Shown here in pieces: positions 2,721-19,812 of a stretch of 32,000 nt of DNA (within the stretch, counting starts at the first letter, position 1; every line of letters begins with the position of its first letter). The position numbers and the translations under genes were made by a program. This stretch comes from Candidatus Heimdallarchaeota archaeon (GTDB taxonomy: Archaea; Asgardarchaeota; Heimdallarchaeia; Heimdallarchaeales; Kariarchaeaceae), in the NCBI GenBank assembly GCA_030149205.1, contig JASBSB010000007.1, positions 1 through 32,000 on the forward strand, given 5' to 3'. The notes beneath the pieces are model-generated. The model was given only the letters and a program-made list of their open reading frames with translations, had not been told where the DNA came from and ran no database searches.

Positions 2721-3527
2721 TCAGATGAGGACCACCTTTTTGTCTTCAAGGTCGAGAACAACCTTATGGGTCTTGGCTGAACGATTGTAACGTTTTGTCT
2801 TCGGTTGAAAGAGTACAGTTGAACTTGGAGAGAACTCCCTGTCAATAAGCAGTTCAGGTAAGACCTCAGGAGTCACAGTAATCGCAGTTTCAACACATTC
2901 GGCCAGTTTCTTTAGTACTTTTAATTTAGCGGTGCTGGGCAGGGTCTGCCCTTCAGATTGACTTTTTTTGTTTCCATGAGCTGTTTCTTCCATTTGTCCG
3001 GTGTTATCAGTGAGATTTGAGTCCCTCTTTTCTGAATGCTTATTGGTAACATCATCGTTTGCATTGTCTGGGATGAGCCCTGACTGAGGTTCTAATCCTT
3101 GTTCTTCGATTAACCTGTCCCCTGATCCTTTCTTAGATTGTGAATCATCCCCAGCTTCATTTTCTGAATTCTCTAATCCTACATCTGTTGAATGTTTATC
3201 TGAAATCGCTGTATGACCCTCCTGTGTTGCTTGGTCTTCATCACTGGTTTGGTTGGCATCTATGGTCTGACCTTCAATGAGTTCTGAGATTTGAAACTCT
3301 CGTTCTTTCGAAGCGCAGGTTTTACACTGGCGATAGAGGTTCATTAGATTCTCCCCTCCTTTCACAGTCTCAGAGAATTTCAGGCGTATTTCCTTAAGAT
3401 CCGCAGCCTTCAGATTTCCCTTGAAGACACTTTTTTGAACCCGTTGCATACCTTTAGCGATGAGAAAATCAGCGATCTGTGTTCTTGCAGAATTATCAGG
3501 TATGTCATAGGCGATGACCCAGAGCAC
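2721..3527 (-). CDS. cas2: Cas2 with a large acidic low-complexity insertion (268 aa, GTG start)
   Basis: VIAYDIPD...RVQKSVFKG are canonical Cas2 motifs and CKTC lies near aa 68-71. About 115 aa of S/E/D/Q/N/G-rich sequence follow, then a Cas2-like terminal strand (EDKKVVLI). Confidence 0.92.
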   Translation of the reverse strand: MLWVIAYDIPDNSARTQIADFLIAKGMQRVQKSVFKGNLKAADLKEIRLKFSETVKGGENLMNLYRQCKTCASKEREFQISELIEGQTIDANQTSDEDQATQEGHTAISDKHSTDVGLENSENEAGDDSQSKKGSGDRLIEEQGLEPQSGLIPDNANDDVTNKHSEKRDSNLTDNTGQMEETAHGNKKSQSEGQTLPSTAKLKVLKKLAECVETAITVTPEVLPELLIDREFSPSSTVLFQPKTKRYNRSAKTHKVVLDLEDKKVVLI

Positions 3528-3529
3528 TT

Positions 3530-6370
3530 TCAGTTAAACCTCCCTGTGTTGTAAATGTTAGGTGGAATTCTTAGGATTGACACGGATTTAAGTCTCTTCT
3601 TTGATTTGCAGACCTTTGAAAACCGGCTGGCTCCAGCGAAGATGGTTCTTCTAAGCTTGGTATCATCTTCATTTATGCTTTTGAAGAAAAAGGTGAGGAA
3701 TGATTTTTTCTCTCTTTTAGTGTGACTAAACATCTTGTTACTATACATTATGTTATTTGTGACTGGTATTTTTAGGGTTGCCTCAGCATAAATTTTGGAG
3801 GATGCTCGTGTAAAGCAGGCAATGAGTGGCGGAAGGTCTCTGAGAGAATATGTGTCATCTGAGAACTGTTCAACTGAGAACTGTTCGGATGAGAACTCTT
3901 CAGATGAGATCTGCTCAGATGTCCTCTTTGTGACCTCCAGGTTCTTAAGGAATTTTTGAATCTGTGATTTTTTGGATGGAATTGTCCTTTTGTTTGCTTT
4001 TGAGCTCTGAGTCTTCCTCGCCTGTTTTTCATTGTTTAACAGTTTTTTGATTTTATTTAAGAGGTAATAAAATCCGAGGTCTCTAAATGGGATCTCAAGC
4101 TCTTGCTGAATGTCCTTTGCAAGAGTGTTGATATACCCATTTCCATTGATCAGCAGTCCAGACAGCATGATCTCACTATCTGTGATAGACTGGAGAATTG
4201 AGTCACAAAGATTGATTAGTTCGAGATTCTTGAAACTCGAGTACACAGAGTAATAAAATTGGAGATTTTCATCATTGAGAATAGGTTCAGATGAGTGCGA
4301 GTTCTTATGCGGCTTAGGAAATGAATCAATGGTTAGGAGGAGCGTATGAAGGTTTTGTTGGTACCATTTAGTAAAAGCCCTGATATCTACCTCCTGACAT
4401 GTTAAACTAAGAAGTTCTAGCCCCAGTAGAGTCGACTTAAAGAAATCGGTTAGTTTTAAAAATCTATGTAGAACCAATGCTAAATCAGATGAAGAGCTTT
4501 CATCATTTTGGATATTGATTAATTCAGCATATACAGCAAGTTTGGTATCAAATTGAGAAATATTGGTAAGAAGAAGTGAAATGAAGTCTTCACCTATCTT
4601 TTCTATCTCAGGGCGGTCAGAAAACAGTTTACCAATGTTCTTCCAAATTCCTCTAAACATTCTCTTGATTTTCTTCTCATGAATCAGCGGTTTATACAAG
4701 ACCTGGTTAATCCTGGCCTGAGGTGAGCCATGTCCAAGTATCGGAACTATTGATCCAAATCTTCTTCCTTTCCTGATGAGATGTATCGGTAGTCCCTCAT
4801 AGGCGAGCAGTTTGACAGCAGAGGATGACAGGTCAGAAAGCGAGTCGATGAAAAAGACATCATCAAGGTATTTTAGTGAGACATGGTGTATATCTATTGG
4901 AGGAGGTACTGGTTCAGAAAAGTGTTCTTGAGCGAGTTCAGTGTAGTTAGAATTTTCTCCAATAATAAACTTTGCAGCCTCTGAAAGCATGATAGAAAAG
5001 GGTGGGAATTCCTTTTGGAGTGAGATAAGTTCTGTCTGCCCCCCAGGGAAACTAGAGCTTTCATTTGTTGATACCGATGAGATATAACTTCTTAATTGGA
5101 GTTCCTTATCTGAAGAAAATTCTCTGTATTGATTATCAGATTCTTTAATTTGTGAGTCAATGTGTGTTGTGGGAAATTTTCGCTTATCTTGGTCAGGGAG
5201 ATCCTGATTCTTCTCAATTTGGTGGATATCATTAGTCTCTGATGATGCATCAGACACGTTATTTGAAGTTTTATCTGAAATTGATTGATTTATATTTTTA
5301 TTATCTTCCTCAACACAGAGTTCTGGTGAATCCCTTAGTTCCTCAGGAGCATACCCCTTATTGTTGCTCTTTTCCAAATTCAGTTCTTCTTTTTCCTCTG
5401 ATTCCCTGGGGTTTTCTTGTCCATCTCTTTCACGGAGCATTCTTTCAATTGATAATTCTGCCAGCTTAAAGAATCTCTGGTATTGAGACATGTTCTTAAG
5501 TTCCTCATCGCTATAGAAGCGTTGGTTCTCATTTTCAGACAACTTAGTGTCATCACTATGGAACTCTCCCCTGTGTTTCCTGTTTTTTTCTTTATCAATT
5601 AGACTTGCAGCTTCATTTTTCTCATCACCTTTTTTATGAATTATGAAGAGATCTAAGCTTATCCAAGAAAAGTTTTCATTGGCGAATAGTTTAATTCTAT
5701 TCATAATTTTCTCGTGGGATTCATTTCTTGCAAAAAGCTTCAGAATTTCAGTATACTTAATTATGTGCACTTTTTTAGAAGAATCATGATTTATCTGTTT
5801 TGAATCCACATCTTTTTGATTGATTACATCTGTATTCTTCTCTAAATTTGTCTTCTTGTTGATAATGGCTTTTAATATCTCCCTGCGAACATGTATGAGC
5901 TCTTCTGATGAGTTAACAAATGAGTTAGCTGATGATTTGACTGTATCAACTGGTGAGTTAGCCGACGGGTTAACTACTGTATCAGATGATACCATACCGG
6001 AACTTCTTTGTGATATAAGTGGATCATCACTGTTCTGATTCCTTCCATTGTTGTTCTCAACTGTGTTTTCCTTGGTTTCTTCTTCAGAATTTGAATTAAG
6101 ATCCGTTGAAGCGTCTATAATGTTATTTTCAATTATGCTATTTTCAATTAAATTATCTTGTATATTCTTTTCTTCAAGAAAACTGTCTTCAATAAAATTA
6201 TCTTTAATATTCTTATCTTCTCCACTATGATTTACTGATACTGTTTTTTGGACTGTGGAGATTGAACTGAATCTCTCGCGAAGATGCTTTCTGCGTATTT
6301 TTGGCTTGATGTATAGAACCCCTCTACTGGTTCCCATCTGAGAGTCTTGAAGGATGACAAGTGACGTCAT
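3530..6370 (-). CDS. cas1: Giant (946 aa) Cas1-derived protein, predicted catalytically inactive, with a ~470-aa low-complexity insertion
   Basis: aa 1-24 and ~495-560 (VSLKYLDDVFFIDSLSDLSSSAVKLLAYEGLPIHLIRKGRRFGSIVP...QARINQ) resemble the Cas1 N-terminal domain. aa 718-764 align almost without gaps to the helical core of the Cas1 at 7840-8955. It occupies the cas1 position in a cas1-cas2-cas4 operon. Confidence 0.8.
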   Translation of the reverse strand: MTSLVILQDSQMGTSRGVLYIKPKIRRKHLRERFSSISTVQKTVSVNHSGEDKNIKDNFIEDSFLEEKNIQDNLIENSIIENNIIDASTDLNSNSEEETKENTVENNNGRNQNSDDPLISQRSSGMVSSDTVVNPSANSPVDTVKSSANSFVNSSEELIHVRREILKAIINKKTNLEKNTDVINQKDVDSKQINHDSSKKVHIIKYTEILKLFARNESHEKIMNRIKLFANENFSWISLDLFIIHKKGDEKNEAASLIDKEKNRKHRGEFHSDDTKLSENENQRFYSDEELKNMSQYQRFFKLAELSIERMLRERDGQENPRESEEKEELNLEKSNNKGYAPEELRDSPELCVEEDNKNINQSISDKTSNNVSDASSETNDIHQIEKNQDLPDQDKRKFPTTHIDSQIKESDNQYREFSSDKELQLRSYISSVSTNESSSFPGGQTELISLQKEFPPFSIMLSEAAKFIIGENSNYTELAQEHFSEPVPPPIDIHHVSLKYLDDVFFIDSLSDLSSSAVKLLAYEGLPIHLIRKGRRFGSIVPILGHGSPQARINQVLYKPLIHEKKIKRMFRGIWKNIGKLFSDRPEIEKIGEDFISLLLTNISQFDTKLAVYAELINIQNDESSSSDLALVLHRFLKLTDFFKSTLLGLELLSLTCQEVDIRAFTKWYQQNLHTLLLTIDSFPKPHKNSHSSEPILNDENLQFYYSVYSSFKNLELINLCDSILQSITDSEIMLSGLLINGNGYINTLAKDIQQELEIPFRDLGFYYLLNKIKKLLNNEKQARKTQSSKANKRTIPSKKSQIQKFLKNLEVTKRTSEQISSEEFSSEQFSVEQFSDDTYSLRDLPPLIACFTRASSKIYAEATLKIPVTNNIMYSNKMFSHTKREKKSFLTFFFKSINEDDTKLRRTIFAGASRFSKVCKSKKRLKSVSILRIPPNIYNTGRFN
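3860..3919. repeat. Four degenerate 15-nt tandem units (TGAGAACTGTTCxxx) encoding SEQIS/SEEFS/SEQFS/VEQFS
   Basis: Units start at 3860, 3875, 3890 and 3905, read directly from the sequence. Confidence 0.85.
6117..6221. repeat. Seven degenerate 15-nt tandem units encoding pentapeptides (IKDNF IEDSF LEEKN IQDNL IENSI IENNI)
   Basis: 15-nt periodicity, e.g. ATAATGTTATTTTCA / ATTATGCTATTTTCA / ATTAAATTATCTTGT. Confidence 0.75.
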
Positions 6371-7374
6371 TTTAGATTCACCTCATTTGAATGATCAGAT
6401 TTAGTTTGAATCATGGATGGGTGCAAAGGTTTTGAGGACAGTTCTTTAATCTTATGTGGAAACCTTTTCTGGGGTTCCTCATCTTTAGTATCCTCGATTT
6501 TTATCTCTGAGCTCCAGTACCTGAATGATTTTAGGGATACTGCAGCAAATTCATTCTGTTGAATGTGTAGTACCATCCAGTCTCCCTGAAGCCAAACTAT
6601 TGTGCCTTTTAATGTCAGGTTCTGAGAGGCTGTGACTGTCAAAACCTTTGCATCCTTTAGGTCTAAATCTGGGATAAGGTTTTGATGTGAAATCTCCAGG
6701 TTATACCGATGAGCGATCGATAAAAATATTTCACCTATCCTCTCAAACTTCTCTGCCACCTCAGAATTTGAAGTACTCTGAGCAAAGGACTCTCCCTTTT
6801 CATCTGTTGTTAGCCTATCTGGAACATTTAACTCATTAGAGAGATGATGCTCCAAAGCCAATGCAAATGGTAGCCCATCAATCTTTTGAAGTACCAATGC
6901 CTCATTCAACCCCTGTTCTACCAATCTTACGGTTTCTCCCCTGCTTCGTCGGCTTATACCCACCTTGAATCGGGAGTTAAATCTCCCAACATACAGGAGA
7001 TAAGATTGATGACAGGTCTCTCTGTTCTCATAATATCCACAGGGATAAAAATCATGAGTACACCATCCCACTTTTACAAGTTGGGAGTCAGGCTCTAAAT
7101 AATTGCATTTCTTGATCTCTAGGTATCTCTCATCATCATCCAGCTCAATGGATTGGCAATTTGAACAGACGTCCTCCTCTGATGGACCTAAACAGATCTC
7201 ACAGACATGCATTTTGGCCTTTAAGGAGATCCTGCTTCCAATTACAAGAATAACATGAAATGTGCTCTTTGTTTCCTCTAGATAACAGGTTAAAGTTGAA
7301 CGAAATGGAAAGAACGGAGAAAAATAATTCTCTTTCTCTTTTTCTACTGTGTATGAAGTGTCAAAAATTATCAA
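6367..7374 (-). CDS. DUF2797-family Cys-rich protein, putative GIY-YIG/T5orf172-like nuclease
   Basis: CEIC..CSNC and further Cys residues, then YLLYVGRFNSRFKVGISRR..VRLVEQG..A..L...E and C-terminal GTIVWLQGDWMVL, matching my recollection of the DUF2797 pattern. Its stop overlaps the next start (ATGA at 6367-6370). Confidence 0.75.
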   Translation of the reverse strand: MIIFDTSYTVEKEKENYFSPFFPFRSTLTCYLEETKSTFHVILVIGSRISLKAKMHVCEICLGPSEEDVCSNCQSIELDDDERYLEIKKCNYLEPDSQLVKVGWCTHDFYPCGYYENRETCHQSYLLYVGRFNSRFKVGISRRSRGETVRLVEQGLNEALVLQKIDGLPFALALEHHLSNELNVPDRLTTDEKGESFAQSTSNSEVAEKFERIGEIFLSIAHRYNLEISHQNLIPDLDLKDAKVLTVTASQNLTLKGTIVWLQGDWMVLHIQQNEFAAVSLKSFRYWSSEIKIEDTKDEEPQKRFPHKIKELSSKPLHPSMIQTKSDHSNEVNLK

Positions 7375-7747
7375 AGTTCCCGTCCCCCTTTTTTTAACAA
7401 TCTACTCAAGGAACCTTATATATGTTTCTCTCTGCGAAATCTACTTTGCTTTAAAAAACATGAAATACTTTCGGTTTCAGATATTTGCTGTTCAGATACT
7501 CTGCCAGCAGCTCATTTCTAGTATTATAGATAAAAAGATTACCTCAGATCTCCCCATGGTGTAACCTTCATATCATTTGTGAAGTAAATCAATCCCACTC
7601 TGTAAAATTTTACTGATCCACTGAAGAGGAAAGGGATGATATGGTCAAGGGTTGATTCGAATTAGCATAGATATAGGATAAGTGTTTAGAAAATTGAAAA
7701 TATGATAAGCTTAAGTAGCTCGAACACCTTTATCTTAAACATAAGTC

Positions 7748-7787
7748 CTTTCTTCATCAACTTTCTACTTTCTTCATCAACTTTCTA
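7748..7787. repeat. Perfect 2 x 20-nt tandem direct repeat (CTTTCTTCATCAACTTTCTA), putative operator upstream of the second cas1
   Basis: Identical units at 7748-7767 and 7768-7787, followed by TATA-like TTTATTAA at 7804-7811 and ATG at 7840. Confidence 0.85.
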
Positions 7788-7839
7788 TTTTGTTGCGCTA
7801 TCCTTTATTAAGCACCAAACTACCCTTATATACAAGGGG

Positions 7840-8955
7840 ATGGGTTCCATACAAAACCAAACAAAAAATAATCCTGGGGGAGAAGATGTAAAATCAGCTG
7901 AATCGTCATTAACACACGAAATTAACACAGGTAAGTCTGAGAGGATCAACAAATACAAAAACGAAAAATTCCTTTTTGAGGAGGGAAAGATCCTTTCTAT
8001 AACCAGAAGAGGAAAACTTCTTAAGATCTTTGAGACCTTTCCAATTCAATCCTCGAGATTCATCTCAGCTGATCACACCCTCATTCTTCCGCTTAAGTCT
8101 GGATTCAGCAAAGAATCTTTGAACCTTGCACTAGAAAATGGGACAAATATCACGCTTTCAGATAGAAATGCAGGAGTTAAATTGTACAGCAACCAAATTC
8201 AAGAAGAGCTTGATCTTATCAAAACTCAGCAATACAAAGCAATGAGCTCAGAGAACTTCTGTCACTCATTAAGCACCAAGATTCTTCGCCGAAGTCAGGA
8301 GGGAAAGCTTCAGACCATCAGACTCATGATGTATCTCTCTGAGGATCTAGGAGCAGAGGAAGAGCTTAAGAGTCTTGAAAACTCTTTGATAACTCAAAAT
8401 AATCTTATTGAGAACCCTGATCAGAGATGGAGGACATTCCTCTTTAGTGAAGAAGCAAACTTTGCAGCAGTCTACTTCAACATCTTTAACAAATATTGTG
8501 AGCTACATGGCTGGGAATTTACCAAACGATCCCGAAGACCAGCCCAAAACCCAGTCAATGCACTCTTAAACTATGGATACGCGATTCTAAAGGGAAAGGT
8601 AGATCGACTGGTCACTGGCTCGGGTCTGGACCCATTTGTTGGTATGCTACATACCCTTAGACCAGGGAGAGAGTCACTCTCTCTTGATCTGATGGAACCC
8701 TTTAGACAACTCATGGTTGATACAAGTGTCATTGAGATTATTCACTCAAAACTCCTTTCAGAGAAGGACTTTGAACTAAGAAAAGATGAGGTCAGACTTT
8801 CTGATGATGCCAAAGAGACATTGCAGATGCTGATTAAGCTTCGAACCAATTACAATGAAGAGGAATCTCTGATCCTCCCAATGATTGAAACTATCCGAGA
8901 ACTACTGATGGCAGTCATTAGCTATACTGACAGGGGGAATGCAACGGATGAATAA
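7840..8955 (+). CDS. cas1: Cas1 integrase with intact catalytic triad (ORF track starts at 7702; ATG 7840 preferred)
   Basis: EEANFAAVYF, RSRRPAQNPVNALLNYGYAIL, SGLDPFVGMLH and SLSLDLMEPFR motifs show E/H/E present. The upstream in-frame extension is hydrophobic and crosses a 20-nt (non-triplet) repeat. Confidence 0.95.
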   Translation: MGSIQNQTKNNPGGEDVKSAESSLTHEINTGKSERINKYKNEKFLFEEGKILSITRRGKLLKIFETFPIQSSRFISADHTLILPLKSGFSKESLNLALENGTNITLSDRNAGVKLYSNQIQEELDLIKTQQYKAMSSENFCHSLSTKILRRSQEGKLQTIRLMMYLSEDLGAEEELKSLENSLITQNNLIENPDQRWRTFLFSEEANFAAVYFNIFNKYCELHGWEFTKRSRRPAQNPVNALLNYGYAILKGKVDRLVTGSGLDPFVGMLHTLRPGRESLSLDLMEPFRQLMVDTSVIEIIHSKLLSEKDFELRKDEVRLSDDAKETLQMLIKLRTNYNEEESLILPMIETIRELLMAVISYTDRGNATDE

Positions 8956-9098
8956 TTTCAGAATTTCCAATTGTAGAGAGATACCATACTCAAATGTATC
9001 CTCACCGCATTTACTATGTGAAGATCAGAATTTTAGAATTTATTTCTGGTCAGAAGAATTCTCTGTTGAACAAATGTGTGAGAATCAGTCAGATAGTG

Positions 9099-9224
9099 TG
9101 CAATTCCTTTTGTGCTCTCTGGGTCTGAGGACACCAAAAAATCGGAAATTCCACCGTGCTGGTTCCGCGATTTTGAAAATCGAAATGCATAAATACAAGG
9201 CTTCCCTATGGAGAAATAGCCTCG
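9099..9224 (+). promoter_or_regulatory. CRISPR leader of array 2
   Basis: Inverted homologue of 1982-2107. Palindrome CGATTTT-G-AAAATCG at 9168-9182 and TATA-like ATAAATA at 9189-9195, about 30 nt before the first repeat. Confidence 0.92.
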
Positions 9225-12200
9225 GTTGCAATTGAGTTAAAACCCTTGTAGGGATTGAAACAGTAAATGCACAATTGAATGTATCACCATAAAGTTTAAG
9301 TTGCAATTGAGTTAAAACCCTTGTAGGGATTGAAACGTATCGTCATCAATCCCAACATACTCACGTATAATGGTGTTGCAATTGAGTTAAAACCCTTGTA
9401 GGGATTGAAACGAATATAAACATAATCTATTTTCATCTGAAATGAGCTGTTGCAATTGAGTTAAAACCCTTGTAGGGATTGAAACAAACACACCACAGCA
9501 CCTACAGAAATGGGTTTGACGTGGTTGCAATTGAGTTAAAACCCTTGTAGGGATTGAAACATGTTGGCTTATCAACGCTGAAGCTCATCCTACGAAAAGT
9601 TGCAATTGAGTTAAAACCCTTGTAGGGATTGAAACTTGCAAACTGGCTTCAAAATAATTACAAGTACAGCCATGTTGCAATTGAGTTAAAACCCTTGTAG
9701 GGATTGAAACAAATATTTTTCATACTTTGAAAGAAAAGAATCAATTTGTTGCAATTGAGTTAAAACCCTTGTAGGGATTGAAACATCCATATCATATATG
9801 AAGGGAATGACTGCCAGAAACAGTTGCAATTGAGTTAAAACCCTTGTAGGGATTGAAACGTTTGATTAATAACGGAAACCCTAAATGATTTCTCCTCGTT
9901 GCAATTGAGTTAAAACCCTTGTAGGGATTGAAACCAAATTGAAGGTCATGATAAGGACAGAGATCTCTTACGTTGCAATTGAGTTAAAACCCTTGTAGGG
10001 ATTGAAACCGTTTGCGTCGCTCGTTATGGTTATCCCGTTGGTGAGTTGCAATTGAGTTAAAACCCTTGTAGGGATTGAAACAGTACACTGCATTAAGAAA
10101 GTTTATCCCCGATTTTTAGTTGCAATTGAGTTAAAACCCTTGTAGGGATTGAAACGTTCCATGAAAAAACTATATCTTCTGATGCTGTTCCCTTGTTGCA
10201 ATTGAGTTAAAACCCTTGTAGGGATTGAAACATTTGGACTTTTGTTTTTTTAGAATTTTGAAACACAGTTGCAATTGAGTTAAAACCCTTGTAGGGATTG
10301 AAACGTGCTGGGGACTTCATACTGCAGCAATGTTGCCACAGTTGCAATTGAGTTAAAACCCTTGTAGGGATTGAAACGGAGGTTGTACACTCATTTATTG
10401 TGGTTTTCTCAAGTGTTGCAATTGAGTTAAAACCCTTGTAGGGATTGAAACAGGTTTCCACCTATTGAAAGACCAATCTTTGACTTGCGTTGCAATTGAG
10501 TTAAAACCCTTGTAGGGATTGAAACTCCAAGGCAGAGTCGTTCAGACACGTTTACACCGACTCGTTGCAATTGAGTTAAAACCCTTGTAGGGATTGAAAC
10601 GTGAGTTTCAGCGAATTAATGTATTAATCTTAAAATTGTTGCAATTGAGTTAAAACCCTTGTAGGGATTGAAACATCTTAGGTTTTTTGTCAGTAGTAAT
10701 ATTCTTACCCATGTTGCAATTGAGTTAAAACCCTTGTAGGGATTGAAACTAAGCGTCAACTCTCATCTTATATTCTTCTTCATCTTTGGTTGCAATTGAG
10801 TTAAAACCCTTGTAGGGATTGAAACGCAACAACCCTTTGTTGTTGCCCGCACATAACCCCTACGTTGCAATTGAGTTAAAACCCTTGTAGGGATTGAAAC
10901 ATAAGTTCCCTCTTTATTTGTATCTTATCCTCATTCTGTTGCAATTGAGTTAAAACCCTTGTAGGGATTGAAACAATCTCACCCTCCCTTCTCATTCTTT
11001 TTTTTTTTTTTTGTTGCAATTGAGTTAAAACCCTTGTAGGGATTGAAACTCTTGGAGTGTGTCAAACTTAGAAGCCATATACAGAAGTTGCAATTGAGTT
11101 AAAACCCTTGTAGGGATTGAAACTGAGAAACATGAAATGGACTGTTAGAAATCTTTCTGTGTTGCAATTGAGTTAAAACCCTTGTAGGGATTGAAACTAG
11201 GTGGTGTTGCTATATACTCTTATCAAAATTTCTCTGTTGCAATTGAGTTAAAACCCTTGTAGGGATTGAAACAGCTCTGAGAGATACTTTTGAAATTGAT
11301 GCGTTTTGTGGTTGCAATTGAGTTAAAACCCTTGTAGGGATTGAAACCATTACAAGATACTGTAACTGATAATGATAATGTGACGTTGCAATTGAGTTAA
11401 AACCCTTGTAGGGATTGAAACTTAAGACGGGCGAGTTTGTATTTTTTGTAATGCTCCACGTTGCAATTGAGTTAAAACCCTTGTAGGGATTGAAACTTGT
11501 GCGTTATATAATTAGTACGTATCTTCTCACTTGGGTTGCAATTGAGTTAAAACCCTTGTAGGGATTGAAACACAATTGCATGTTTGAGGAGCTGTATCAC
11601 CATAAAAGTTGCAATTGAGTTAAAACCCTTGTAGGGATTGAAACTATACTTAAAATTATGCTTAAACAGATAGCATATAAGAGGTTGCAATTGAGTTAAA
11701 ACCCTTGTAGGGATTGAAACTTTTCTGCTTCATCCTCGTCTGGTGTGGGAATTGGTTCGTTGCAATTGAGTTAAAACCCTTGTAGGGATTGAAACCAAGA
11801 TGATTTCGAGAAAATGATGAATGAAATCATAGAGTTGCAATTGAGTTAAAACCCTTGTAGGGATTGAAACTATTCTTTGAGTAGGACCCTGCAGGGAGAA
11901 GCTTTATTGTTGCAATTGAGTTAAAACCCTTGTAGGGATTGAAACAAACGGATATTCTGAAACACAATCCCTTATACTCCATCGTTGCAATTGAGTTAAA
12001 ACCCTTGTAGGGATTGAAACAGATATATTCCCTCTTGATATATTCTAATCCTGTTATTGTGTTGCAATTGAGTTAAAACCCTTGTAGGGATTGAAACATA
12101 TATATGGGCTTTGATAAAAGAGAGATGGAACGAACGTTGCAATTGAGTTAAAACCCTTGTAGGGATTGAAACCATATCTTCCGTAGTGTGTTTCCCCGTC

Positions 12201-12399
12201 ACTGTAGACGGTTGCAATTGAGTTAAAACCCTTGTAGGGATTGAAACGAAGAGGTACGGTCAGACAAGTCCCATCTGTCGTTCAGCGTTGCAATTGAGCT
12301 AAAACCCTTGTAGGGATTGAAACGAAGAGGTACGGTCAGACAAGTCCCATCTGTCGTTCAGCGTTGCAATTGAGCTAAAACCCTTTTAGGAATTGAAAC
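9225..12399 (+). CRISPR. CRISPR array 2: 43 repeats and 42 spacers (36-40 nt)
   Basis: Repeat GTTGCAATTGAGTTAAAACCCTTGTAGGGATTGAAAC. The last two repeats (12287-12323, 12363-12399) are variants and the last spacer is duplicated, which marks the trailer end. Confidence 0.99.
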
Positions 12400-12525: not shown

Positions 12526-13407
12526 TTATTTTGTTTTTAGTAATTCTGCATCCTCATCATAGCTTAAAATAGATTTTACTAGTTTTTCATATCTATCTAG
12601 TTCTGCATCAGTGATTTTAGCTCTGGTTGTTTGATTAAGCATGGCGAAAGGTGGAGTTGATTTCCATTCAGTACGGTCAATGAGCTTGAAGGACACAGAT
12701 CCAAAATTGTCTTTGATTCCGTCGACTTCACGGTCTGCGTATTTATGTGAGCCTAGAAGTCTTGTGTGTCCATCGAGGATTCCCAATGATTTAAGTATCA
12801 TTGCCTCTTCCTTTTGGGTGGGGTTTGAGATTGACACACTAAATCTTAGTACTCCATTGATGTTGATTAATTCTTTTTGATCATTTCCAAATCCTTTCAC
12901 ATTTTTCACAGAAATTTGTGTTTCGTCAAGAAGAACTGCATCAGAAACCATGACTCTTCCTTTGACTGCATTTGGTTTATCTTTGTTCTGATAATTTTGG
13001 CGACCTGTCTCAATGTATCCAAAGAGCTTGCAGACATCACATGTAACATCCTTGTTAAATCTCATTTCTTTCGTTTTGAAGATAGTCATGTGTTTTTTAG
13101 AAGGTTTAGATGGTTTTTGATTCTCTCTAAGCGGTGAACAGTGCTGAGATGAGCCAATCTCAAGTCTAGATCGAATTAATCCCTTCAGGGTTGACCCTGG
13201 GATGACATATCTGTCTTTGTTATATATCATTGATTTCACTGCTTCTGGTCTTTCAGCTGCGCTTCTTTGATCAACATTAGCTGCGGTTATATTATCAATA
13301 TGCTTTGATTTGGTGTGGATTCTTTCTCCTCCACTTCCGACAAATGTAAATTTGTTGGTTATGACTTCAAAGGTAAATTTCACAAAATTGTTCATGGTGT
13401 TGTGCAT
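12526..13407 (-). CDS. Type III RAMP, Cas7 group (Csm5-like terminal subunit)
   Basis: FTFVGSG, YVIPGSTLKGLIRSRLE, CDVCKLFG and GRVMVSD motifs, with a degenerate G-rich loop (LLGSHK...NFGSVSF). Last gene of the operon. Confidence 0.85.
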   Translation of the reverse strand: MHNTMNNFVKFTFEVITNKFTFVGSGGERIHTKSKHIDNITAANVDQRSAAERPEAVKSMIYNKDRYVIPGSTLKGLIRSRLEIGSSQHCSPLRENQKPSKPSKKHMTIFKTKEMRFNKDVTCDVCKLFGYIETGRQNYQNKDKPNAVKGRVMVSDAVLLDETQISVKNVKGFGNDQKELININGVLRFSVSISNPTQKEEAMILKSLGILDGHTRLLGSHKYADREVDGIKDNFGSVSFKLIDRTEWKSTPPFAMLNQTTRAKITDAELDRYEKLVKSILSYDEDAELLKTK

Positions 13408-13413
13408 TTTAGC

Positions 13414-14193
13414 TCACTCCATTTGTTTGATTAATTTATTCAGATAGTCTTCTGTTTTTTCTGCACCTATCTTTGTTGTTTTAATCTCTGCACCATCAGT
13501 TGTCATGGTATCGGTAAATTTTGTGTTAACGGTTGAGAGAACCTCAACTTTGACACTACCGAATCCTTTTGTTGAGTGTGCACCAATTGTTATTATTCCA
13601 TTGTTAAGGAGTTTTAAGGTGTATGCAAGATATCCTAGACTCAGCTTTTCATTTACAACAGTTATGAATCCTTCAAATTCAGTTCCTTTGGGGACAAATT
13701 CGACCTGTGTAAGCATGTTATTCATGACAGCCCCGTATTTTCTTGAGATAGCAATTGATGTTTTGGTTTGAAGTACTACAGGTTTTTGAGATACAAAATC
13801 GCTAATTCTTGTTGCAGCTCTGAATACTGTTGATCCAAACATCCAGCAAGTTAGACATATTCCCTGATCTTTTTCGGTTTTTCTGAGCACGAGTTTCTTT
13901 TTTAAAGTTGGGTAGTCTGCTTTTGTAAAATCTCTGTCATTTTTGTTTATTTTACGTCCACAGCTGTTCCTATCAAGGGGATCACATGCGTAGTATGAGT
14001 TCGAGCTTCTCAAAACTCTTTCAATATTTGCGCGAATTATTCCTTTCATTGTTGTCCCTGGTATGAATGGATAATCCCCCTCAATATTTTGGATTTTCAT
14101 AACCTGGCTTGCTTTGGTATCAGCAAGGTCTTTTTTTCCACTTCCTACATGTAGCATTGAATCAGCTGTTATTTTGAGTTTGAGGGTGACCAT
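13414..14193 (-). CDS. csm3: Type III RAMP, Cas7/Csm3 family
   Basis: MLHVGSG, PFIPGTTMKGIIR, CLTCWMFGS and IGAHSTKGFGSV G-rich loop. Confidence 0.9.
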   Translation of the reverse strand: MVTLKLKITADSMLHVGSGKKDLADTKASQVMKIQNIEGDYPFIPGTTMKGIIRANIERVLRSSNSYYACDPLDRNSCGRKINKNDRDFTKADYPTLKKKLVLRKTEKDQGICLTCWMFGSTVFRAATRISDFVSQKPVVLQTKTSIAISRKYGAVMNNMLTQVEFVPKGTEFEGFITVVNEKLSLGYLAYTLKLLNNGIITIGAHSTKGFGSVKVEVLSTVNTKFTDTMTTDGAEIKTTKIGAEKTEDYLNKLIKQME

Positions 14194-14212
14194 TTCATTG
14201 TTGTCAAAGTGA

Positions 14213-14965
14213 TTAGCTAGAATTTTTCTTCACCTCAAATTCATTAATGTCATCGTTGAAGGTTACTGTGTATTTTTCTTCTTTTGGTTCAAATTCACCT
14301 TCAACTTTTGTGTAATATGTTGCAGTCAGTTCAGAGAGTTTTAGCACCCCCAATCCCCCGCTTGTTTTACCACCGACAGATATTTGGTTAAGTGCCATTT
14401 TTTTAAGCAGATAAAGGATAATTTTGCTTCTGATGTCATTCTTGTCAGCTGAAAGTTTCTCTTCAAAATTAAATTTGATGTTTTCAACGAACATATCAAA
14501 GAAGTACTCATTTTCTGGTTCTATTACCTCTATTTCATATTTTGCCCCCGGATAAGCCACACCAAGCACACGATGAATTGCGACACCTGGTTTCTGAGAT
14601 GTTGGTACATCATCCTCTGTTGGGATTAGATCAAGTACTTTTACGTGCGATGCCAAGCTGTTACCACCGAATATCCCGCAAACGGGGCAGTAATTGTCTT
14701 CCTTGCACATATTTGATGTATTTGGGGGTTCGCATGAGTTACCGTTACCCACTAATTTTTCTGCTTCCGTTCTAAGAACCCCCTTGAGTGATGTTCCTGG
14801 AATAACAGGTAAATCTATTCCCCCAATATTTTGTTTGAAAACACTGTTTTCACCTATCCCCATTTCCAGAGAGGAACCTCCCACGTGTGTTTGTGTTAAG
14901 TTTTTTATGATTCCCTGTAGTTTGAGAAGAGATTTGAAAGAGTTAAAGTCTTGATAGTCGTTCAT
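14213..14965 (-). CDS. csm3: Type III RAMP, Cas7/Csm3 (Csx7-like) family (ORF track starts at 15031; ATG 14965 preferred)
   Basis: THVGG, PVIPGTSLKGVLRTEAE, CPVCGIFGG and VGGKTSGGLG loop. The ATG is 1 nt after the csm2 stop. Confidence 0.9.
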   Translation of the reverse strand: MNDYQDFNSFKSLLKLQGIIKNLTQTHVGGSSLEMGIGENSVFKQNIGGIDLPVIPGTSLKGVLRTEAEKLVGNGNSCEPPNTSNMCKEDNYCPVCGIFGGNSLASHVKVLDLIPTEDDVPTSQKPGVAIHRVLGVAYPGAKYEIEVIEPENEYFFDMFVENIKFNFEEKLSADKNDIRSKIILYLLKKMALNQISVGGKTSGGLGVLKLSELTATYYTKVEGEFEPKEEKYTVTFNDDINEFEVKKNSS

Positions 14966-14966
14966 T

Positions 14967-15371
14967 TTATCTACTGTACCCTTGTCTCTTTGATTGTGTT
15001 CTGTTTCCAGATTGGCTGACAAATTCTGCATTTAGAGATTTTAGATCTTTTATTTTATCTGTGCTTAATCTGTTTTTCTCTATAATTTCATTTGCCCAGT
15101 TGATATATGTTAACAGTCTGAGTGCGATCTGTGGTTGATCCTTTAATTTTTCCAGTTCCTTGACTAACTCTTTACTGAATGAATGGGTTAGTTTTCCTCC
15201 TGCTGCCTGTCTTGCTGTGAACAGCATTAGTTTCTGCACACCTTCTTTTGTTGGCTCAGATTGTAAAAGATTATATAGATTAGAGATTTGGGATGATCCC
15301 GAACCTTTGTCTGTAATCTTAAACCCTGCCAATTTTGTTCCTAGATCTATGTAGTTTACGTTTTTACTCAT
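14967..15371 (-). CDS. csm2: Type III small subunit (Cas11/Csm2-like)
   Basis: 134 aa, all-helical, with SQISNLYNLL...LMLFTARQ pattern, located between the Cas5-like and Cas7 genes. Confidence 0.75.
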   Translation of the reverse strand: MSKNVNYIDLGTKLAGFKITDKGSGSSQISNLYNLLQSEPTKEGVQKLMLFTARQAAGGKLTHSFSKELVKELEKLKDQPQIALRLLTYINWANEIIEKNRLSTDKIKDLKSLNAEFVSQSGNRTQSKRQGYSR

Positions 15372-16423
15372 TTTTCTACCTCCGGGTTCATTGCCCCGTA
15401 TCCATCATAATCCTTTGTACCGGATCCGATGAGTTGTTGTGTTGGATGTAATTCAATAGTTTTGTCGAGGAGGAGGAGAGAACCTTCTTCGGCGACATAC
15501 GTCAACTCAGTTTGTGTTCCACCACCAGGGTTATTGGATTCCCATCCATTTTCTTTGGAGACTGATCCATTTGATTCTAATATAGAATCAACTTGTATGT
15601 CTCCTATCTTTGTTAATTTTGATTGATTAGTTTCGATAATAGTCTTTGATATTAAGCTCACCTGATTTGATGATACTGTGTTTAGTTTCTTCAGTTCGTC
15701 CACAGAGTTTATTTTCAGGGTTCCAAATCCTTTACTTCGTCCACCTCCGATTTGGATATACTTATCCTTCATAGAATTTATAAATTCCAGAGTTTGTGTA
15801 TTTTCTGTTTCTAGATAGAATGTGAATTGATACCCTGGGATTATAGCCTCGTCAAAATATAGTATCCCTTTTTCGGTGGAGTTAGTAGTTGCCTGAATTC
15901 CTATTCCTGTAAAGTTTGTTGTATAAATTGCAGCCTCAGTAAAGAAGTCACATTCTTTACATTTTAGTCCTTCCCTGTATTTTAATGTAGCAGATTCTTT
16001 GCAAGTAGGGCATGAAGGTACAACTTCAGGATTATCCATTGGAATAATAAAGCCATACTTCTGGTATAATTGATTATTAATGTCTGAAGCTTCTTCTTTT
16101 CTCATGCAACTCTTACATAGCAAATAATTTCGAGGGATTTGGATAAGAATGTCCTGACATTTAGGACAGGTCCTATAGAGGAAGGATACCTTTGCTAATG
16201 GTTTTGCTGAATACAACAAATTATTTGGAACGATACAGGTATTATATTCAGGACATTTATCTTCTATACACCAATCACTGCTATGCTTGCATTCATATCC
16301 AAGAAAGGCGTTAATTAATGCTCCTCTGATTGTAGATCCAGAGATGGTCTTAGAGATTGACCTATCTACCCCAGATTTTATTTTGATGGGCTCAATTTGT
16401 TCTACTGTAACCTTTAGTATCAT
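15368..16423 (-). CDS. RAMP of the Cas5 group (Csx10/Csm4-like) with a Cys-rich insertion
   Basis: ISGSTIRGALI, IGGGRSKGFG G-rich loop and C-terminal GSG...GYG. Contains multiple CxxC pairs. Confidence 0.8.
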   Translation of the reverse strand: MILKVTVEQIEPIKIKSGVDRSISKTISGSTIRGALINAFLGYECKHSSDWCIEDKCPEYNTCIVPNNLLYSAKPLAKVSFLYRTCPKCQDILIQIPRNYLLCKSCMRKEEASDINNQLYQKYGFIIPMDNPEVVPSCPTCKESATLKYREGLKCKECDFFTEAAIYTTNFTGIGIQATTNSTEKGILYFDEAIIPGYQFTFYLETENTQTLEFINSMKDKYIQIGGGRSKGFGTLKINSVDELKKLNTVSSNQVSLISKTIIETNQSKLTKIGDIQVDSILESNGSVSKENGWESNNPGGGTQTELTYVAEEGSLLLLDKTIELHPTQQLIGSGTKDYDGYGAMNPEVEK

Positions 16424-17025
16424 TATTTTCCTTCCTCCTTTAGTAATTTTGAATTTTGTTCGAGAATTGTAAAAGGTACTTTTTTAGCTCCAAACCCATA
16501 ATTTGACCAAAATACTAGTAATGTGTTAAAGAATTTTTTTTCTTCCTCATTTAGGTCATTAAGTTCAAGATGTATCTTCGTGGTTAGCTTTGGTAACTTT
16601 TCTATGAAAAAGAGTGACCCAGTTGCAGCAGACCTTTTCTTTCTATTGAGGGCTATCCTAGGTTGAACAAAACTCTTTTGTTGATTTGTATCAATGTAAG
16701 TTGAATAAGCCTTTATTTTTCCAGATTTTTTTGATCCACCAAATATTGAGCAAACTATGCATTTATCACACATTTTTTTCGTCAAGCTTGTTTTACAGCT
16801 GTTTTCATCTAATCGTATTGCTACAGCCCTCAATGTCCCTTTGATTATGGTGCCAGGTATCCAATATTCTCGATTTATTGAAGATTTTCCATCTTTCGTA
16901 AAGCTGATTCTATTTATTTTTCTAACTTTTAGGTCAGCAATTGATGAACCAGGAGATTCTGCATCCATTGTTCCCCAGCTAGATTTAAATTCTATTTTTA
17001 GATCTATTGTCTCAAATCTGCTCAT
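16423..17025 (-). CDS. Short RAMP, Cas7 group
   Basis: IADLKVRK, WIPGTIIKGTLR, CDKCIVCSIFGG and RIALNRKKRSA motifs; G-rich loop reduced (GFGAKK). Confidence 0.85.
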   Translation of the reverse strand: MSRFETIDLKIEFKSSWGTMDAESPGSSIADLKVRKINRISFTKDGKSSINREYWIPGTIIKGTLRAVAIRLDENSCKTSLTKKMCDKCIVCSIFGGSKKSGKIKAYSTYIDTNQQKSFVQPRIALNRKKRSAATGSLFFIEKLPKLTTKIHLELNDLNEEEKKFFNTLLVFWSNYGFGAKKVPFTILEQNSKLLKEEGK

Positions 17026-18584
17026 AATCCAAACCTCGAGCTAATTAAATCAATTCCACGTTTAATGTGGTTGGTGTTATTCTCCAAATCGATTAAATCA
17101 TATGCCAATCTGTATCCAAGTCCTTTGTTACCTAAAACTCCGTTGTTTGTATGACGAGCTTGCATTCTCAGAGTAAATAGCATCATTTCTTGATGCTTTA
17201 AATTTTGATCAAAGGCATCGGCTATGTTGAGAGTTGTCTTCAATGGGATGAGGTATTTCTCTTTTATTTCCTCCTGTTGTGTCTTTGAAACGTTTTTGAT
17301 TTCTGCAAGTTCAGGAATTGTATTAATTATAGTTTCAAGAAATGAGTTATCCCCTATGCCATATCCTCCACTATACTCTAGTTGGTTTTCAGTGGTTTCC
17401 TTTCTTCTTGTCTTAATTGAATTCGGGGTGGTTGTGTTGAATACAACTTCAAAATCAATACCACCTTTATTTTCTGGTTTAGCCAAAACTTTAGCTGATT
17501 TCAGAAGTGAGTCTGCCAATTCTATATTTTTCATAAAAGGAACTTTTGTCTTGGTAAAAACTATTCCAGCAGATAATGTTAGATTTTCTTTTGAAAAGGT
17601 TTTGCTAAATTCATTTATGAAATTATAAGCTATAGGAAATGCCAAGGTCGCAGGTGTAATTATTCTCACATCATCACCTCCAATGTAGACCTTCCCTAAT
17701 TCTAGTCTAAGTTTGTCTTCTTGATCCTGAAGGTTTGCAATGATTGTGGTGTATATATCATTTACAGTTTTGTCAATTTTATCACTAAATGATTTTAGTT
17801 CATCCTTGGTAGACAACTTTGAGAAGAACTTCCCAAACAGGTTTCCATCCAATAAAATAATTCCAATTTTATTTTTTGATTCACTATTTTCAAAACTTCC
17901 CTCGCTAGTTTTACCTTTGATCTGATCTGATGGTATACCTGCAATAAATTGAAGTAAATTTACTTTAAGCTCTTTCAGGTTGCATTGGATCTTATTGTTA
18001 GAAATGATATCGTTTAATCTCTTTGAACCTTGATTCTTAAATGAATGACAGATTTCACACAGTTTTTTGTTCGTATAAATCAGATCAGAAGACTCCTCTG
18101 AGTCTTCATCCTCATAGGGATCAACGGTTCCTTCTCTAACATAACACGAAACACATGGAACCGTAGGGGTAATCAATTCTTTAAGTTCTAAAGTATGAAT
18201 TCTACGTTTTATCCTTCCAGCTTCAGTGAGAAGCTTTGATCTATTTTTTTGGAACTGTGTATCGTCTTGAATAGGTATTGAGTGTACCAAAAGATCTGGA
18301 TTGCTGAGCTTCCCCATAGTTGTTTTTGATCCATATAAAGCTTTGAAGAATACTTCCTTAACCTCATCTTCAGTATCTTTATTAAGATCTCCATCAATTT
18401 CTAGAATTGCATTTCCTCCACCATTGTAAACAATTTCTCCATCAAATTTTTGTTTTGTAAACTGACTTGCTTTGTAGACTGCTTGTGATAGTCTTAAGGA
18501 GACTTCACGCATTTCACCTAAATATCTTCTGTCATCTACGAATTTTTTGATTCCTCGGGTGTCTAAAAGAAGAAGATTTTTTAT
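17022..18584 (-). CDS. cas10: Cas10 lacking the HD domain, with intact Palm2 GGDD (ORF track starts at ATG 18512; ATA 18584 inferred)
   Basis: Upstream in-frame LLLLDTRGIKKFV (Palm1 strand), YNGGGNAIL, Zn finger CVSC...CEIC, IILLDGNLFGKFF, VYIGGDDVRII and LSAGIVF. About 520 aa leaves no room for an HD domain. Confidence 0.92.
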   Translation of the reverse strand: MKNLLLLDTRGIKKFVDDRRYLGEMREVSLRLSQAVYKASQFTKQKFDGEIVYNGGGNAILEIDGDLNKDTEDEVKEVFFKALYGSKTTMGKLSNPDLLVHSIPIQDDTQFQKNRSKLLTEAGRIKRRIHTLELKELITPTVPCVSCYVREGTVDPYEDEDSEESSDLIYTNKKLCEICHSFKNQGSKRLNDIISNNKIQCNLKELKVNLLQFIAGIPSDQIKGKTSEGSFENSESKNKIGIILLDGNLFGKFFSKLSTKDELKSFSDKIDKTVNDIYTTIIANLQDQEDKLRLELGKVYIGGDDVRIITPATLAFPIAYNFINEFSKTFSKENLTLSAGIVFTKTKVPFMKNIELADSLLKSAKVLAKPENKGGIDFEVVFNTTTPNSIKTRRKETTENQLEYSGGYGIGDNSFLETIINTIPELAEIKNVSKTQQEEIKEKYLIPLKTTLNIADAFDQNLKHQEMMLFTLRMQARHTNNGVLGNKGLGYRLAYDLIDLENNTNHIKRGIDLISSRFGL

Positions 18585-18717
18585 AGAAAATAACCCTCCT
18601 TATCCATATTATTTTGGGTTTATTCTTAATTTAAAAAGATTTTGCGAACTTATTAGATTTTTTCAATAAAACATTTACTCATTTTATGTTGTTTTTACGG
18701 ATATTTATTTTTGCAAA

Positions 18718-19812
18718 TCAGGATTTTATTGGCACAAGTAAATTTTGATGGATAATTCTAGGGAAGTAGAATCTGCCCAGTCCAGAGGTTCTCGCCCTTC
18801 CTACTCCAGTAAAGAATCCAAGTTTGATGAGATAACTTAGCATCTGGTGGGATGATTCATCCCTGCTGTAGAATGACACATCCCCTATCCACCCCCTGTG
18901 TATCATTTTTTTCCCAGTCTGTACCCTGATGATGTTTCCCTTTGCATACTCAACACTCACATTGTTGACATGGGGTTCAATGGTCTCTGGATCCAGCTGG
19001 GAGTTTGGCAGCCAGTTGTTCCAGATGGTGAGCAGGTTCTTCATGATGTAGCTGGGTTCGGGCCAGAAGAAGTAGCCATCCCCATTTGAGAAGGAGAGAG
19101 GTGTCTGAAAGCGAATCTTCAATGGGTTTTCAAGGGTGAGGTGGGTGATTGGAGAGGTATCCAGCGGGTGAATACCATGTGGTTCCAATCTCAGTGCATC
19201 CTTATCTGCCTCCCAATCAATGCTCATTATCTGGTTGACTGCATTGAGTATTTTGTCATCGGTGGTTGCGATATCAAAGTGAACACTGTCTCCCACATTG
19301 AGCATTGTGTCTCTTGGCGTTCGTCGGTTATTTCTGGTTCCTGTATTTCTACGATTTGTAAGTCTGCGGTTCCTTTGATTCTGAGGGTTATCCCCTGTAT
19401 TTAGAGTTGAACTGGCAGTAGGTTGGGTGGGTTCAGCCTCTCCAAATGTGCGTCCCATGGTTGAGAGGATACTGTTAATTGATGTTTTATCATCGGGGGG
19501 TGTAGGGTGAGAAGTTTCCCCATTCTCAGTGGATTCAGCTGAAGTATTATCTTTTTTATCTTGAATCTTGGTTTCATCACTGGGCCCATCTATGGTGAAC
19601 TGTGAGAGAGCGAATCGCTTGATCATGTCACTATCATGAATCTCAGTTGCCAGGTGTTTGTCTGTCTCTTTCAGTGCCTTGAAGAACATCCCTCGTACCA
19701 ATCCCCCAGAGAATCGTGGTATTGTACCAGGAGATGTCGTTTTAAAAGAGAGCCTATAAAACTTGACCTCCATTGTATCTGATGATTCATTGGACTGAAT
19801 AAACCTTATCAC
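18718..19812 (-). CDS. cas6: Cas6 endoribonuclease with a ~90-aa disordered insertion (alternative start ATG 19773)
   Basis: FSGGLVRGMFFKAL..H, RFALS, IRFQTPLSF and C-terminal LGFFTGVGRARTSGLG G-rich loop. Confidence 0.93.
   Translation of the reverse strand: MIRFIQSNESSDTMEVKFYRLSFKTTSPGTIPRFSGGLVRGMFFKALKETDKHLATEIHDSDMIKRFALSQFTIDGPSDETKIQDKKDNTSAESTENGETSHPTPPDDKTSINSILSTMGRTFGEAEPTQPTASSTLNTGDNPQNQRNRRLTNRRNTGTRNNRRTPRDTMLNVGDSVHFDIATTDDKILNAVNQIMSIDWEADKDALRLEPHGIHPLDTSPITHLTLENPLKIRFQTPLSFSNGDGYFFWPEPSYIMKNLLTIWNNWLPNSQLDPETIEPHVNNVSVEYAKGNIIRVQTGKKMIHRGWIGDVSFYSRDESSHQMLSYLIKLGFFTGVGRARTSGLGRFYFPRIIHQNLLVPIKS

Follow-up and report, generated by a model that had tools for sequence, protein, structure and literature searches.

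The usual forms of Cas1, Cas2 and Cas6 are compact and folded throughout. In the canonical Cas1-Cas2 integrases with known structures (E. coli, 5DS4 and 5WFE; P. furiosus, 7EI1; Synechocystis, 7CR6) and in the other Cas1 entries among the Foldseek matches listed in this work, the solved Cas1 chains comprise ~263-359 residues. Against this background we describe a CRISPR locus of Candidatus Heimdallarchaeota archaeon that encodes a 946-amino-acid (aa) Cas1 paralog (Cas1*), together with a Cas2 and a Cas6 that are also enlarged. The stretch analysed, here called the window, is the first 32 kb (32,000 nucleotides, nt) of contig JASBSB010000007.1 (assembly GCA_030149205.1; genome 3.3 Mb, 12 contigs), and all positions refer to it. 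A sequence-only reading of this DNA had reported in-frame extra segments in these three Cas proteins, and both the genes and the segments lie where it placed them. We lean towards the view that these segments are lineage-specific in-frame expansions of pre-existing flexible loops and linkers, forming flexible tethers that were expanded together at permissive sites.

The largest insertions are in Cas1*, encoded on the minus strand at 3530-6370. On its own, the 946-aa protein has no sequence match in Pfam (the Cas1 cut-off of PF01867 is not reached), NCBIfam or the PDB, and an exhaustive HMMER search over 1.84 billion representatives returned only five relatives, of 304-464 aa. Its identity becomes apparent from its family and from its predicted fold. 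The family profile matches Aquifex Cas1 (2yzs, E=9e-4), and the ortholog in genome G003 scores 26.2 bits against Pfam Cas_Cas1 (cut-off 22.3), in the N-terminal domain only. For an AlphaFold (AF2) model of a 307-aa relative, P0009 (predicted local distance difference test score, pLDDT, 79), the top 50 Foldseek matches in the PDB are all Cas1 or casposase (E 1.9e-9 to 1.8e-6, template modelling (TM) score up to 0.64). The model of full-length Cas1* likewise has confident cores in the parts corresponding to the two-domain Cas1 fold, with an N-terminal beta-sandwich and a C-terminal helical domain. By family and modelled fold, Cas1* is thus a very diverged Cas1.

Whether Cas1* retains the Cas1 active site can be judged from motif-level alignments, which are not statistically significant. 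In these, the family motif GLLPxGxGY-x lies opposite the canonical GLDPFVGLLH, with N, F, I, L or S at the position of the catalytic His; the invariant E757 aligns with the first Asp of DLMEPFR, and the position matching the canonical E332 is not acidic. A canonical-Cas1 hidden Markov model run against Cas1* sequences gave non-significant local matches only. We infer that Cas1* does not preserve the catalytic Glu-His-Asp/Glu triad, that its catalytic His has apparently been lost and that the protein would be non-catalytic, in keeping with the asterisk that the sequence-only reading had attached to it. Its role is probably structural, which may be a reason why it tolerates the largest insertion of the locus.

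To map the insertions we aligned Cas1* to six relatives of 304-464 aa. Relative to orthologs of 304-334 aa, Cas1* has ~610-640 aa of excess length. The N-terminal hairpin (residues 1-44) aligns to ortholog N-termini; ~418 residues with no counterpart in any relative follow (insertion 1, residues 45-462; 4985-6238, minus strand), separating the N-terminal beta-hairpin from the rest of the N-terminal domain, and the fold then resumes. This segment is absent in all orthologs. An insertion of ~470 aa had been proposed for Cas1*; its presence is borne out, with the main one being shorter than proposed. Further insertions at residues ~585-600, 618-635, 665-715, 770-790 and 812-908 together add ~200 aa. 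Those between residues ~585 and 715 (4226-4618, minus strand) occupy the linker of the N- and C-terminal domains, where pLDDT falls below 50 at residues 607-703. The last, insertion 2 (residues 812-908, 97 aa; 3647-3937, minus strand), lies in the C-terminal helical domain, contains an (E-Q-F-S-x) pentapeptide repeat and coincides with a gap in all orthologs. As the N-terminal hairpin aligns to ortholog N-termini, a fusion of two genes can be ruled out, and by this alignment the insertion is internal.

Insertion 1 carries a net charge of -27 (~-0.07 per residue), contains 25% hydrophobic residues compared with 34% in shuffled sequences (z -5.4), and has no stop codon where 33 are expected. In the full-length AlphaFold model its pLDDT is below 50 almost throughout; residues 151-320 are less polar and have a low-confidence helical prediction. 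HMMER over the same 1.84 billion representatives, Pfam, a word-index search of shorter proteins and an Atlas feature search revealed no homolog of this insertion. In the model of the short relative P0009, the sites of the Cas1* inserts correspond to low-pLDDT loops at residues 49-64 and 191-196. Another relative, P0008 (464 aa), has a Q/E/R/T-rich low-complexity insertion of its own, of ~130 aa at the inter-domain linker, where Cas1* has its mid-protein insertions. This site is different from that of insertion 1, indicating that the Cas1* family takes insertions repeatedly.

Cas2 (268 aa; 2721-3527, minus strand) shows a simpler architecture. Its core (residues 1-75) is readily recognized by PF09827 (45.4 bits at residues 3-74, cut-off 23.8) and TIGR01573 (44.1 bits at 3-75, cut-off 24.5), and Y7, D8 and I9, which form the Y-D-I motif with the Asp that ends beta1, are invariant in the family alignment. 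The core is followed by a 130-aa acidic linker (residues 76-205; 2913-3302, minus strand) and by a basic, strand-like tail (residues 206-268) that is conserved across relatives. In all six other family members (165-184 aa), the matching linker is 25-45 aa long and likewise acidic. Judged by these alignments, the extra sequence of Cas2 is a stretched C-terminal linker and not an insertion into the fold; the extra segment of ~115 aa or more reported earlier is present. The linker has a net charge of -16 (~-0.12 per residue), is 15% hydrophobic (z -3.2 relative to shuffles) and lacks stop codons, with 7.8 expected. A word-index search with Cas2 returned only Cas2 itself.

The third protein, Cas6 (18718-19812, minus strand), is 364 aa long from a GTG start, or probably 351 aa from Met14. 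PF10040 matches residues 233-347 with 50.6 bits (cut-off 25) and Cas6_N matches residues 35-84; TIGR01877 reaches 42.5 bits, below its equivalog cut-off of 58.65. The glycine-rich loop G-x-G-x-x-x-x-x-G-x-G is present (motif TGVGRARTSGLGRF), and G336, G338, R339, R341, G344, L345, G346 and R347 are invariant among orthologs. Compared with orthologs of 277-304 aa, there are ~65-70 extra residues, at ~84-111 and 127-165, which bring a variable loop of 10-30 aa in the orthologs to ~95 aa here. The expansion (residues 84-165; 19318-19563, minus strand) comprises an acidic half, a short conserved motif and an Arg/Asn-rich half, in which a conserved R-R-x-x-R-D patch has become larger, and is only 9% hydrophobic (z -4.3 relative to shuffles). 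The acidic-then-Arg/Asn-rich composition given by the sequence-only reading is therefore accurate, with its estimate of ~90 aa adjusted downwards.

Taken together, the inserts are mainly S/T/N/Q-rich polyampholytes, of which those of Cas1* and Cas2 are moderately acidic, as had been described. Hydrophobic residues are depleted relative to composition-matched shuffles in three of the four inserts (z -3.2 to -5.4). The same shuffles predict 4-33 stops per insert; none occurs in the ~730 inserted codons, codon usage in the coding frame is host-like, and the other frames contain up to 68 stops. The genes also remain closely coupled, with a 4-nt overlap between the DUF2797 and Cas1* genes, a 2-nt gap between those of Cas1* and Cas2, and an 11-nt gap between those of Cas2 and Cas4. 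Open frames and intact coupling had been taken to argue against simple decay, and these measurements agree. Disorder is supported by the low pLDDT for the Cas1* inserts; for the Cas2 linker and the Cas6 insert, it is predicted from composition only.

We next asked whether such segments are common in this genome, using merged 25-aa windows with ≤16% hydrophobic residues and a minimum length of 40 aa to define hydrophobic-poor segments. Segments of at least 100 aa occur in 15 of the 2773 open reading frames (ORFs; 0.5%), and 1.4% of all residues lie in hydrophobic-poor segments. Values are similar in 400-kb samples of a congener, G001 (2 of 353 ORFs; 2.1% of residues), and of a distant genome, G220 (2 of 314 ORFs; 1.8% of residues). 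By contrast, a total of at least 100 aa in such segments is found in 3 of the 13 cas ORFs of the locus compared with 37 of 2773 ORFs genome-wide (post hoc binomial estimate ~6e-4). Among the 2773 ORFs, Cas2 is 8th and Cas6 11th when ordered by longest segment, and Cas1* is second when ordered by total. No hydrophobic-poor segment of at least 40 aa is present in Cas4, the DUF2797 protein or any type III effector ORF, consistent with the earlier remark that the effector genes have no insertions. Ortholog lengths tell the same story: across 250 reciprocal-best pairs with G001, which is a distant congener (GC 41% compared with 35% here; median ortholog identity 48%), lengths differ by a median of 0, with symmetrical tails. 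There is no general inflation of the genome, and its non-Cas proteins do not share the expansion seen in the three Cas proteins.

Several features of the inserts point to how they may have arisen. All tandem repeats detected by Tandem Repeats Finder inside the Cas1* gene have a period of 12 or 15 nt, and all fall within inserts: degenerate 15-nt repeats (6120-6220, residues 51-84) and a 12-nt repeat (5905-5975, residues 132-156) in insertion 1, and a 15-nt repeat of 4.1 copies (3860-3921) in insertion 2, all on the minus strand. Third-codon-position GC content (GC3) adds a second line of evidence. GC3 of the adaptation genes (Cas4, Cas2, Cas1*, DUF2797, Cas1) and of Cas6 is 0.36-0.47, in the 85th-98th percentile of the genome, and that of the type III effector genes is genome-typical (0.25-0.35), which suggests that the adaptation/processing genes and the effector have separate histories. 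The inserts themselves have GC3 of 0.23-0.32 (Cas1* insertion 1, Cas2 linker and Cas6 insert) or 0.42 (Cas1* insertion 2), compared with 0.38-0.54 for the cores. In Cas2, GC3 is 0.32 for the linker, 0.47 for the core and 0.44 for the tail; in Cas6, it is 0.30 for the insert and 0.46 and 0.54 for its flanks. This gap is mostly wider than the one that separates hydrophobic-poor segments from other coding sequence across the genome (0.28 and 0.325). Because most of the inserts are host-like in GC3 and the cores GC3-rich, the inserts probably grew in the present AT-rich lineage.

A second strain, X2, allowed us to follow the inserts over a shorter evolutionary distance. Low-depth contigs from a hydrothermal-vent metagenome of a different study are ~90-100% identical across the locus, except for the bins 2811-3047 and 4470-4706, which have no cover, the first of them overlapping the Cas2 linker. 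They cover Cas1* insertion 1 at 4959-5465 and 5593-5938 with ~95% identity. Among the 40 listed of 249 differences, the sole coding-region indel is in frame, and X2 has one extra copy of the 15-nt repeat after position 3874, within Cas1* insertion 2. In that same insertion, five of the six listed substitutions are synonymous, a hint, from six substitutions, of purifying selection. With polarity and codon usage kept, pLDDT below 50 in the Cas1* inserts, and the Cas1* insertions retained by X2, the phrase IDR-expanded CRISPR machinery (IDR, intrinsically disordered region), with which the sequence-only reading had summarized the locus, is an adequate description.

We then surveyed Cas1, Cas2 and Cas6 lengths in a sample of 251 Asgard genomes, a comparison that had been suggested along with the initial observation, and which brought to light one other inflated genome, G220. 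Most of the ~108 Cas2 open frames are 87-140 aa long; the one here, at 270 aa, is the second-longest, after that of G220 (586 aa). The ~85 Cas6-like open frames are usually 250-356 aa, with the one here (364 aa) being the longest and no other outlier. Intact canonical Cas1 open frames are usually 303-411 aa; the canonical Cas1 of this locus reaches 421 aa via an upstream open stretch, and G220 has a Cas1 open frame of 517 aa with a split profile match. The G220 Cas1 protein (507 aa) has a ~145-aa hydrophobic-poor insert at the inter-domain linker. Its Cas2 (585 aa) has a normal core, repeat-rich low-complexity linkers and a short basic-plus-hydrophobic terminal tail, V-x-[IL]-x...V-[IVL]-[IL], similar to the tail here. 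Its Cas6 has a 40-aa polar segment in the N-terminal domain, in the loop that aligns with the one expanded here, and the locus also encodes Cas4. A giant Cas2 and an insert-bearing Cas1 thus co-occur in the same two genomes, out of ~75 with Cas1. As G220 belongs to a different family of the phylum, the expansions are independent, and multi-protein inflation of the adaptation module arose at least twice. In the G220 locus (174000-192000), Cas1-Cas2-Cas4 is also flanked by proteins of 950 and 772 aa (ORFs 1669-4521 and 9365-11683) that match no Pfam family and are rich in hydrophobic-poor segments.

The remaining genes of the window place these proteins in context. Cas1* and Cas2 belong to a set of four tightly packed minus-strand genes upstream of CRISPR array 1 (307-1684, minus strand; 37-nt repeats). 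The first encodes a DUF2797 protein (6367-7374; PF10977, 6.6e-9; orthologs of 287-347 aa) and the last, upstream of the array, Cas4 (177 aa; 2176-2709; TIGR00372, 3e-27; orthologs of 178-181 aa), neither with an insertion. Three same-genus genomes carry the same module, with DUF2797, a Cas1* homolog of 305-334 aa, a Cas2 of 165-204 aa, Cas4 and a divergent canonical Cas1. Here, the canonical cas1 (7837-8955, plus strand; Pfam Cas_Cas1, 6e-50) is divergent from the Cas1* operon and is followed by array 2 (9224-12399, plus strand; ~43 repeats of 37 nt). The repeats of both arrays end in ATTGAAAC, and the arrays hold ~60 spacers in all. The encoded protein appears catalytically intact, with E251, H317, D329 and E332 kept as in orthologs of 304-312 aa. 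Its longest ORF begins at 7702, but the first 45 codons (7702-7836) contain a 20-nt tandem repeat and TATA-like boxes and are absent from orthologs; the true start is probably Met46, at 7837. From this start, the protein may still have a polar N-terminal extension of ~40 aa, though this is uncertain.

A 98-aa ORF at 8939-9235 (plus strand) overlaps the end of canonical cas1 and enters array 2. It is Cys-rich and junk-like, has no family match and is probably the array leader rather than a gene, which would leave the canonical Cas1 without a Cas2 of its own and the sole Cas2 of the locus adjoining Cas1*. A contig from the source sequencing run folds back on itself across opposite strands, connecting 2100 to 9107; the 94 nt concerned show 12 differences, which makes the leaders of the two arrays (window ~2100 and ~9107-9200) inverted near-copies. 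Beyond array 2 lie the type III effector genes (12526-18512, minus strand), encoding five RAMP proteins, a small subunit and a 496-aa Cas10 with a palm2 match, none of which has an insertion. Directly upstream of cas6, on the same strand, is a gene for a 362-aa leucine-rich repeat protein (19900-20988, minus strand). Further along, at 25094-26800 (plus strand), a gene for a DUF4411 (PIN-like) protein is followed by one for a protein with an IrrE/M78 peptidase domain; both are very AT-rich (GC3 0.22-0.24) and may form a toxin-antitoxin or defence pair. Elsewhere in the genome, another contig (C2) encodes a eukaryote-like actin (232008-233114, minus strand; PF00022, 445 bits over the whole profile), in support of an Asgard origin.

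How might three proteins of one locus have come to carry such segments? Under the reading we lean towards, existing flexible sites would have lengthened: in Cas1*, the loop after the first beta-hairpin and helix and, secondarily, the inter-domain linker and a loop of the C-terminal domain; in Cas2, the acidic stretch that joins the ferredoxin-like core to the conserved basic strand-like tail; and in Cas6, a variable N-terminal-domain loop with a conserved Arg patch at its end. At least some of the growth would have come from 12- and 15-nt units that slipped or were duplicated in frame, with the products kept open, polar and probably disordered. Most likely they would then serve as long, flexible spacers or tethers, leaving intact the cores and putative docking elements, such as the tail of Cas2 and the basic patch of Cas6. 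Proteins of adaptation and processing would tolerate such inserts, and the tightly packed type III effector subunits would not. That the insert sites are short, variable and partly acidic linkers in relatives fits permissive-site expansion, although it fits a new function as well. Several observations weigh against mere expansion at permissive sites. Passive tolerance leaves unexplained why three proteins expanded together at one locus here and none did in three congeners. G220, with its giant Cas2, insert-bearing Cas1, polar Cas6 segment and normal genome background, again calls for a locus-level cause. In addition, synonymous changes outnumber non-synonymous ones by 5:1 in Cas1* insertion 2, a hint that selection acts on its sequence and not on the frame alone; Cas1* residues 151-320 may form a folded module rather than a linker; and the disorder of the Cas2 and Cas6 segments is a compositional prediction.

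These points leave room for a possible, more tentative explanation in which the inserts are functional, co-evolved disordered regions making multivalent contacts among Cas1*, Cas2 and Cas6, with pre-CRISPR RNA (pre-crRNA) or with chromatin, and so coupling crRNA processing to integration in a fuzzy complex or condensate. Inflation of three proteins against a background of 0.5-1.3%, its recurrence with a normal background in a distant Asgard family, the shared occurrence of giant Cas2 and insert-bearing Cas1 across the 251 genomes, the hydrophobic-depleted open inserts and the largely synonymous strain differences in insertion 2 would all be expected from it, as would the opposite charges of Cas1* (-27) and Cas2 (-16) on one side and the Arg-rich half of the Cas6 insert on the other. 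Type III Cas6-RT-Cas1 fusions (RT, reverse transcriptase) demonstrate that physical cooperation between Cas6 and the integrase is possible. However, HMMER, Pfam, word-index and Atlas feature searches found no partner, motif or insert homolog, the insert sequences are unalignable even among congeners, which have short linkers, and the hint of selection comes from six substitutions in one insert; two genomes are also not enough to establish co-evolution. The roles raised by the sequence-only reading (DNA mimic, histone chaperone and condensate) have in their favour only the modest net negative charge, whose density is low for a DNA mimic, and the absence of a conserved motif or homolog weighs against them. 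Because co-expansion at one locus happened twice independently and is unexplained by tolerance, we nonetheless give a small chance to a broader form of this idea, namely that Cas1 or Cas1*, Cas2 and Cas6 of some Asgard archaea have, at least twice independently, co-evolved long IDRs that keep them in a fuzzy, multivalent assembly, in which pre-crRNA or histone-bound DNA may also take part. Decay is unlikely. Relaxed selection, for example after horizontal acquisition or with rare expression, could have let slippage junk accumulate on the way to pseudogenes, with frames still open as the process is recent. Cas1* and Cas2 are indeed only 23-32% identical to same-genus orthologs (against the median of 48%), the catalytic His appears to be missing from Cas1*, the genes with inserts stand out in GC3, which suggests that their history is separate, and repeat number is polymorphic between strains. 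Yet no stop or frameshift has entered the ~730 inserted codons, codon usage is host-like, translational coupling is intact, two large arrays are present, X2 keeps the inserts where covered, with its only listed coding-region indel in frame, and conservation extends to the catalytic residues of canonical Cas1, the Asp of Cas2 and the G-rich loop of Cas6. Since insertions this large are unusual in three genes lying near each other, we also considered an assembly or gene-calling artefact, copies of a mobile in-frame element, an intein and a foreign domain that had been captured; all are very improbable, and we found no support for them. One 7.2-kb contig from the source run (depth 82) spans the locus without differences, and contigs from the second study cover parts of the inserts. 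A mobile element was rejected as blastn and tblastx found no further insert copy in the genome and no likeness among the inserts, and an intein or captured domain was rejected as Pfam searches with the isolated inserts returned no domain or intein signature.

Whichever of these readings holds, the locus offers a natural test of how much flexible sequence a CRISPR integrase and a processing nuclease can tolerate, and of tethering, partner recruitment or demixing by such sequence. If expansion at permissive sites is the full explanation and the inserts are merely tolerated, they mark sites that would be useful for engineering Cas1-Cas2 and Cas6 fusions. If instead the inserts interact, a prokaryotic immune module would be organized by disordered-region interactions typical of eukaryotes. 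Eukaryotes, in which disordered linkers are common, have their closest known relatives among the Asgard archaea, and owing to this kinship any function of the inserts would interest a wider field. Diverged Cas1 homologs of Asgard archaea were reportedly described by Makarova et al. 2020 (CRISPR J 3:156), cited in review PMC8730458. These would resemble Cas1* in being Asgard proteins that are extremely diverged, escape standard profiles and have non-standard accessory genes. A search of the literature on disordered insertions in Cas proteins or Asgard proteomes yielded nothing relevant, and the review PMC8730458 mentions only Cas1 homolog diversity and ARAMP systems.

Among better-characterized systems, Cas2/3 of type I-F (8FLJ) and the Cas6-RT-Cas1 proteins of type III indicate that large additions at its C-terminus are tolerated by Cas2 and that a physical coupling of Cas6 to the integrase is possible. 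The additions in those systems are folded enzymatic domains, in contrast to the added sequence here, which has no detectable domain and is predicted to be disordered. With the canonical Cas1-Cas2 integrase, the locus shares the Cas2 core (PF09827, with the Asp of AYDI kept), the two-domain Cas1 fold predicted for the Cas1* family (Foldseek E ~1e-9 and TM ~0.6 to the entries listed at the outset), an intact divergent Cas1, and adjacent Cas4 and CRISPR arrays. It differs in that the Cas1 beside Cas2 is a diverged paralog that seems to lack the catalytic His and carries ~610-640 extra residues, in that Cas2 has a 130-aa linker before its tail, and in that a DUF2797 gene heads the operon. The G220 locus departs from the one described here in that its canonical Cas1 is itself split by the ~145-aa insert, there is no Cas1* paralog, Cas2 is 585 aa long and the polar segment of Cas6 is smaller. 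The two loci are nonetheless alike in combining a normal Cas2 core with repeat-containing linkers and a terminal tail, next to an inflated Cas1 and in company with a Cas6 that bears a polar segment.

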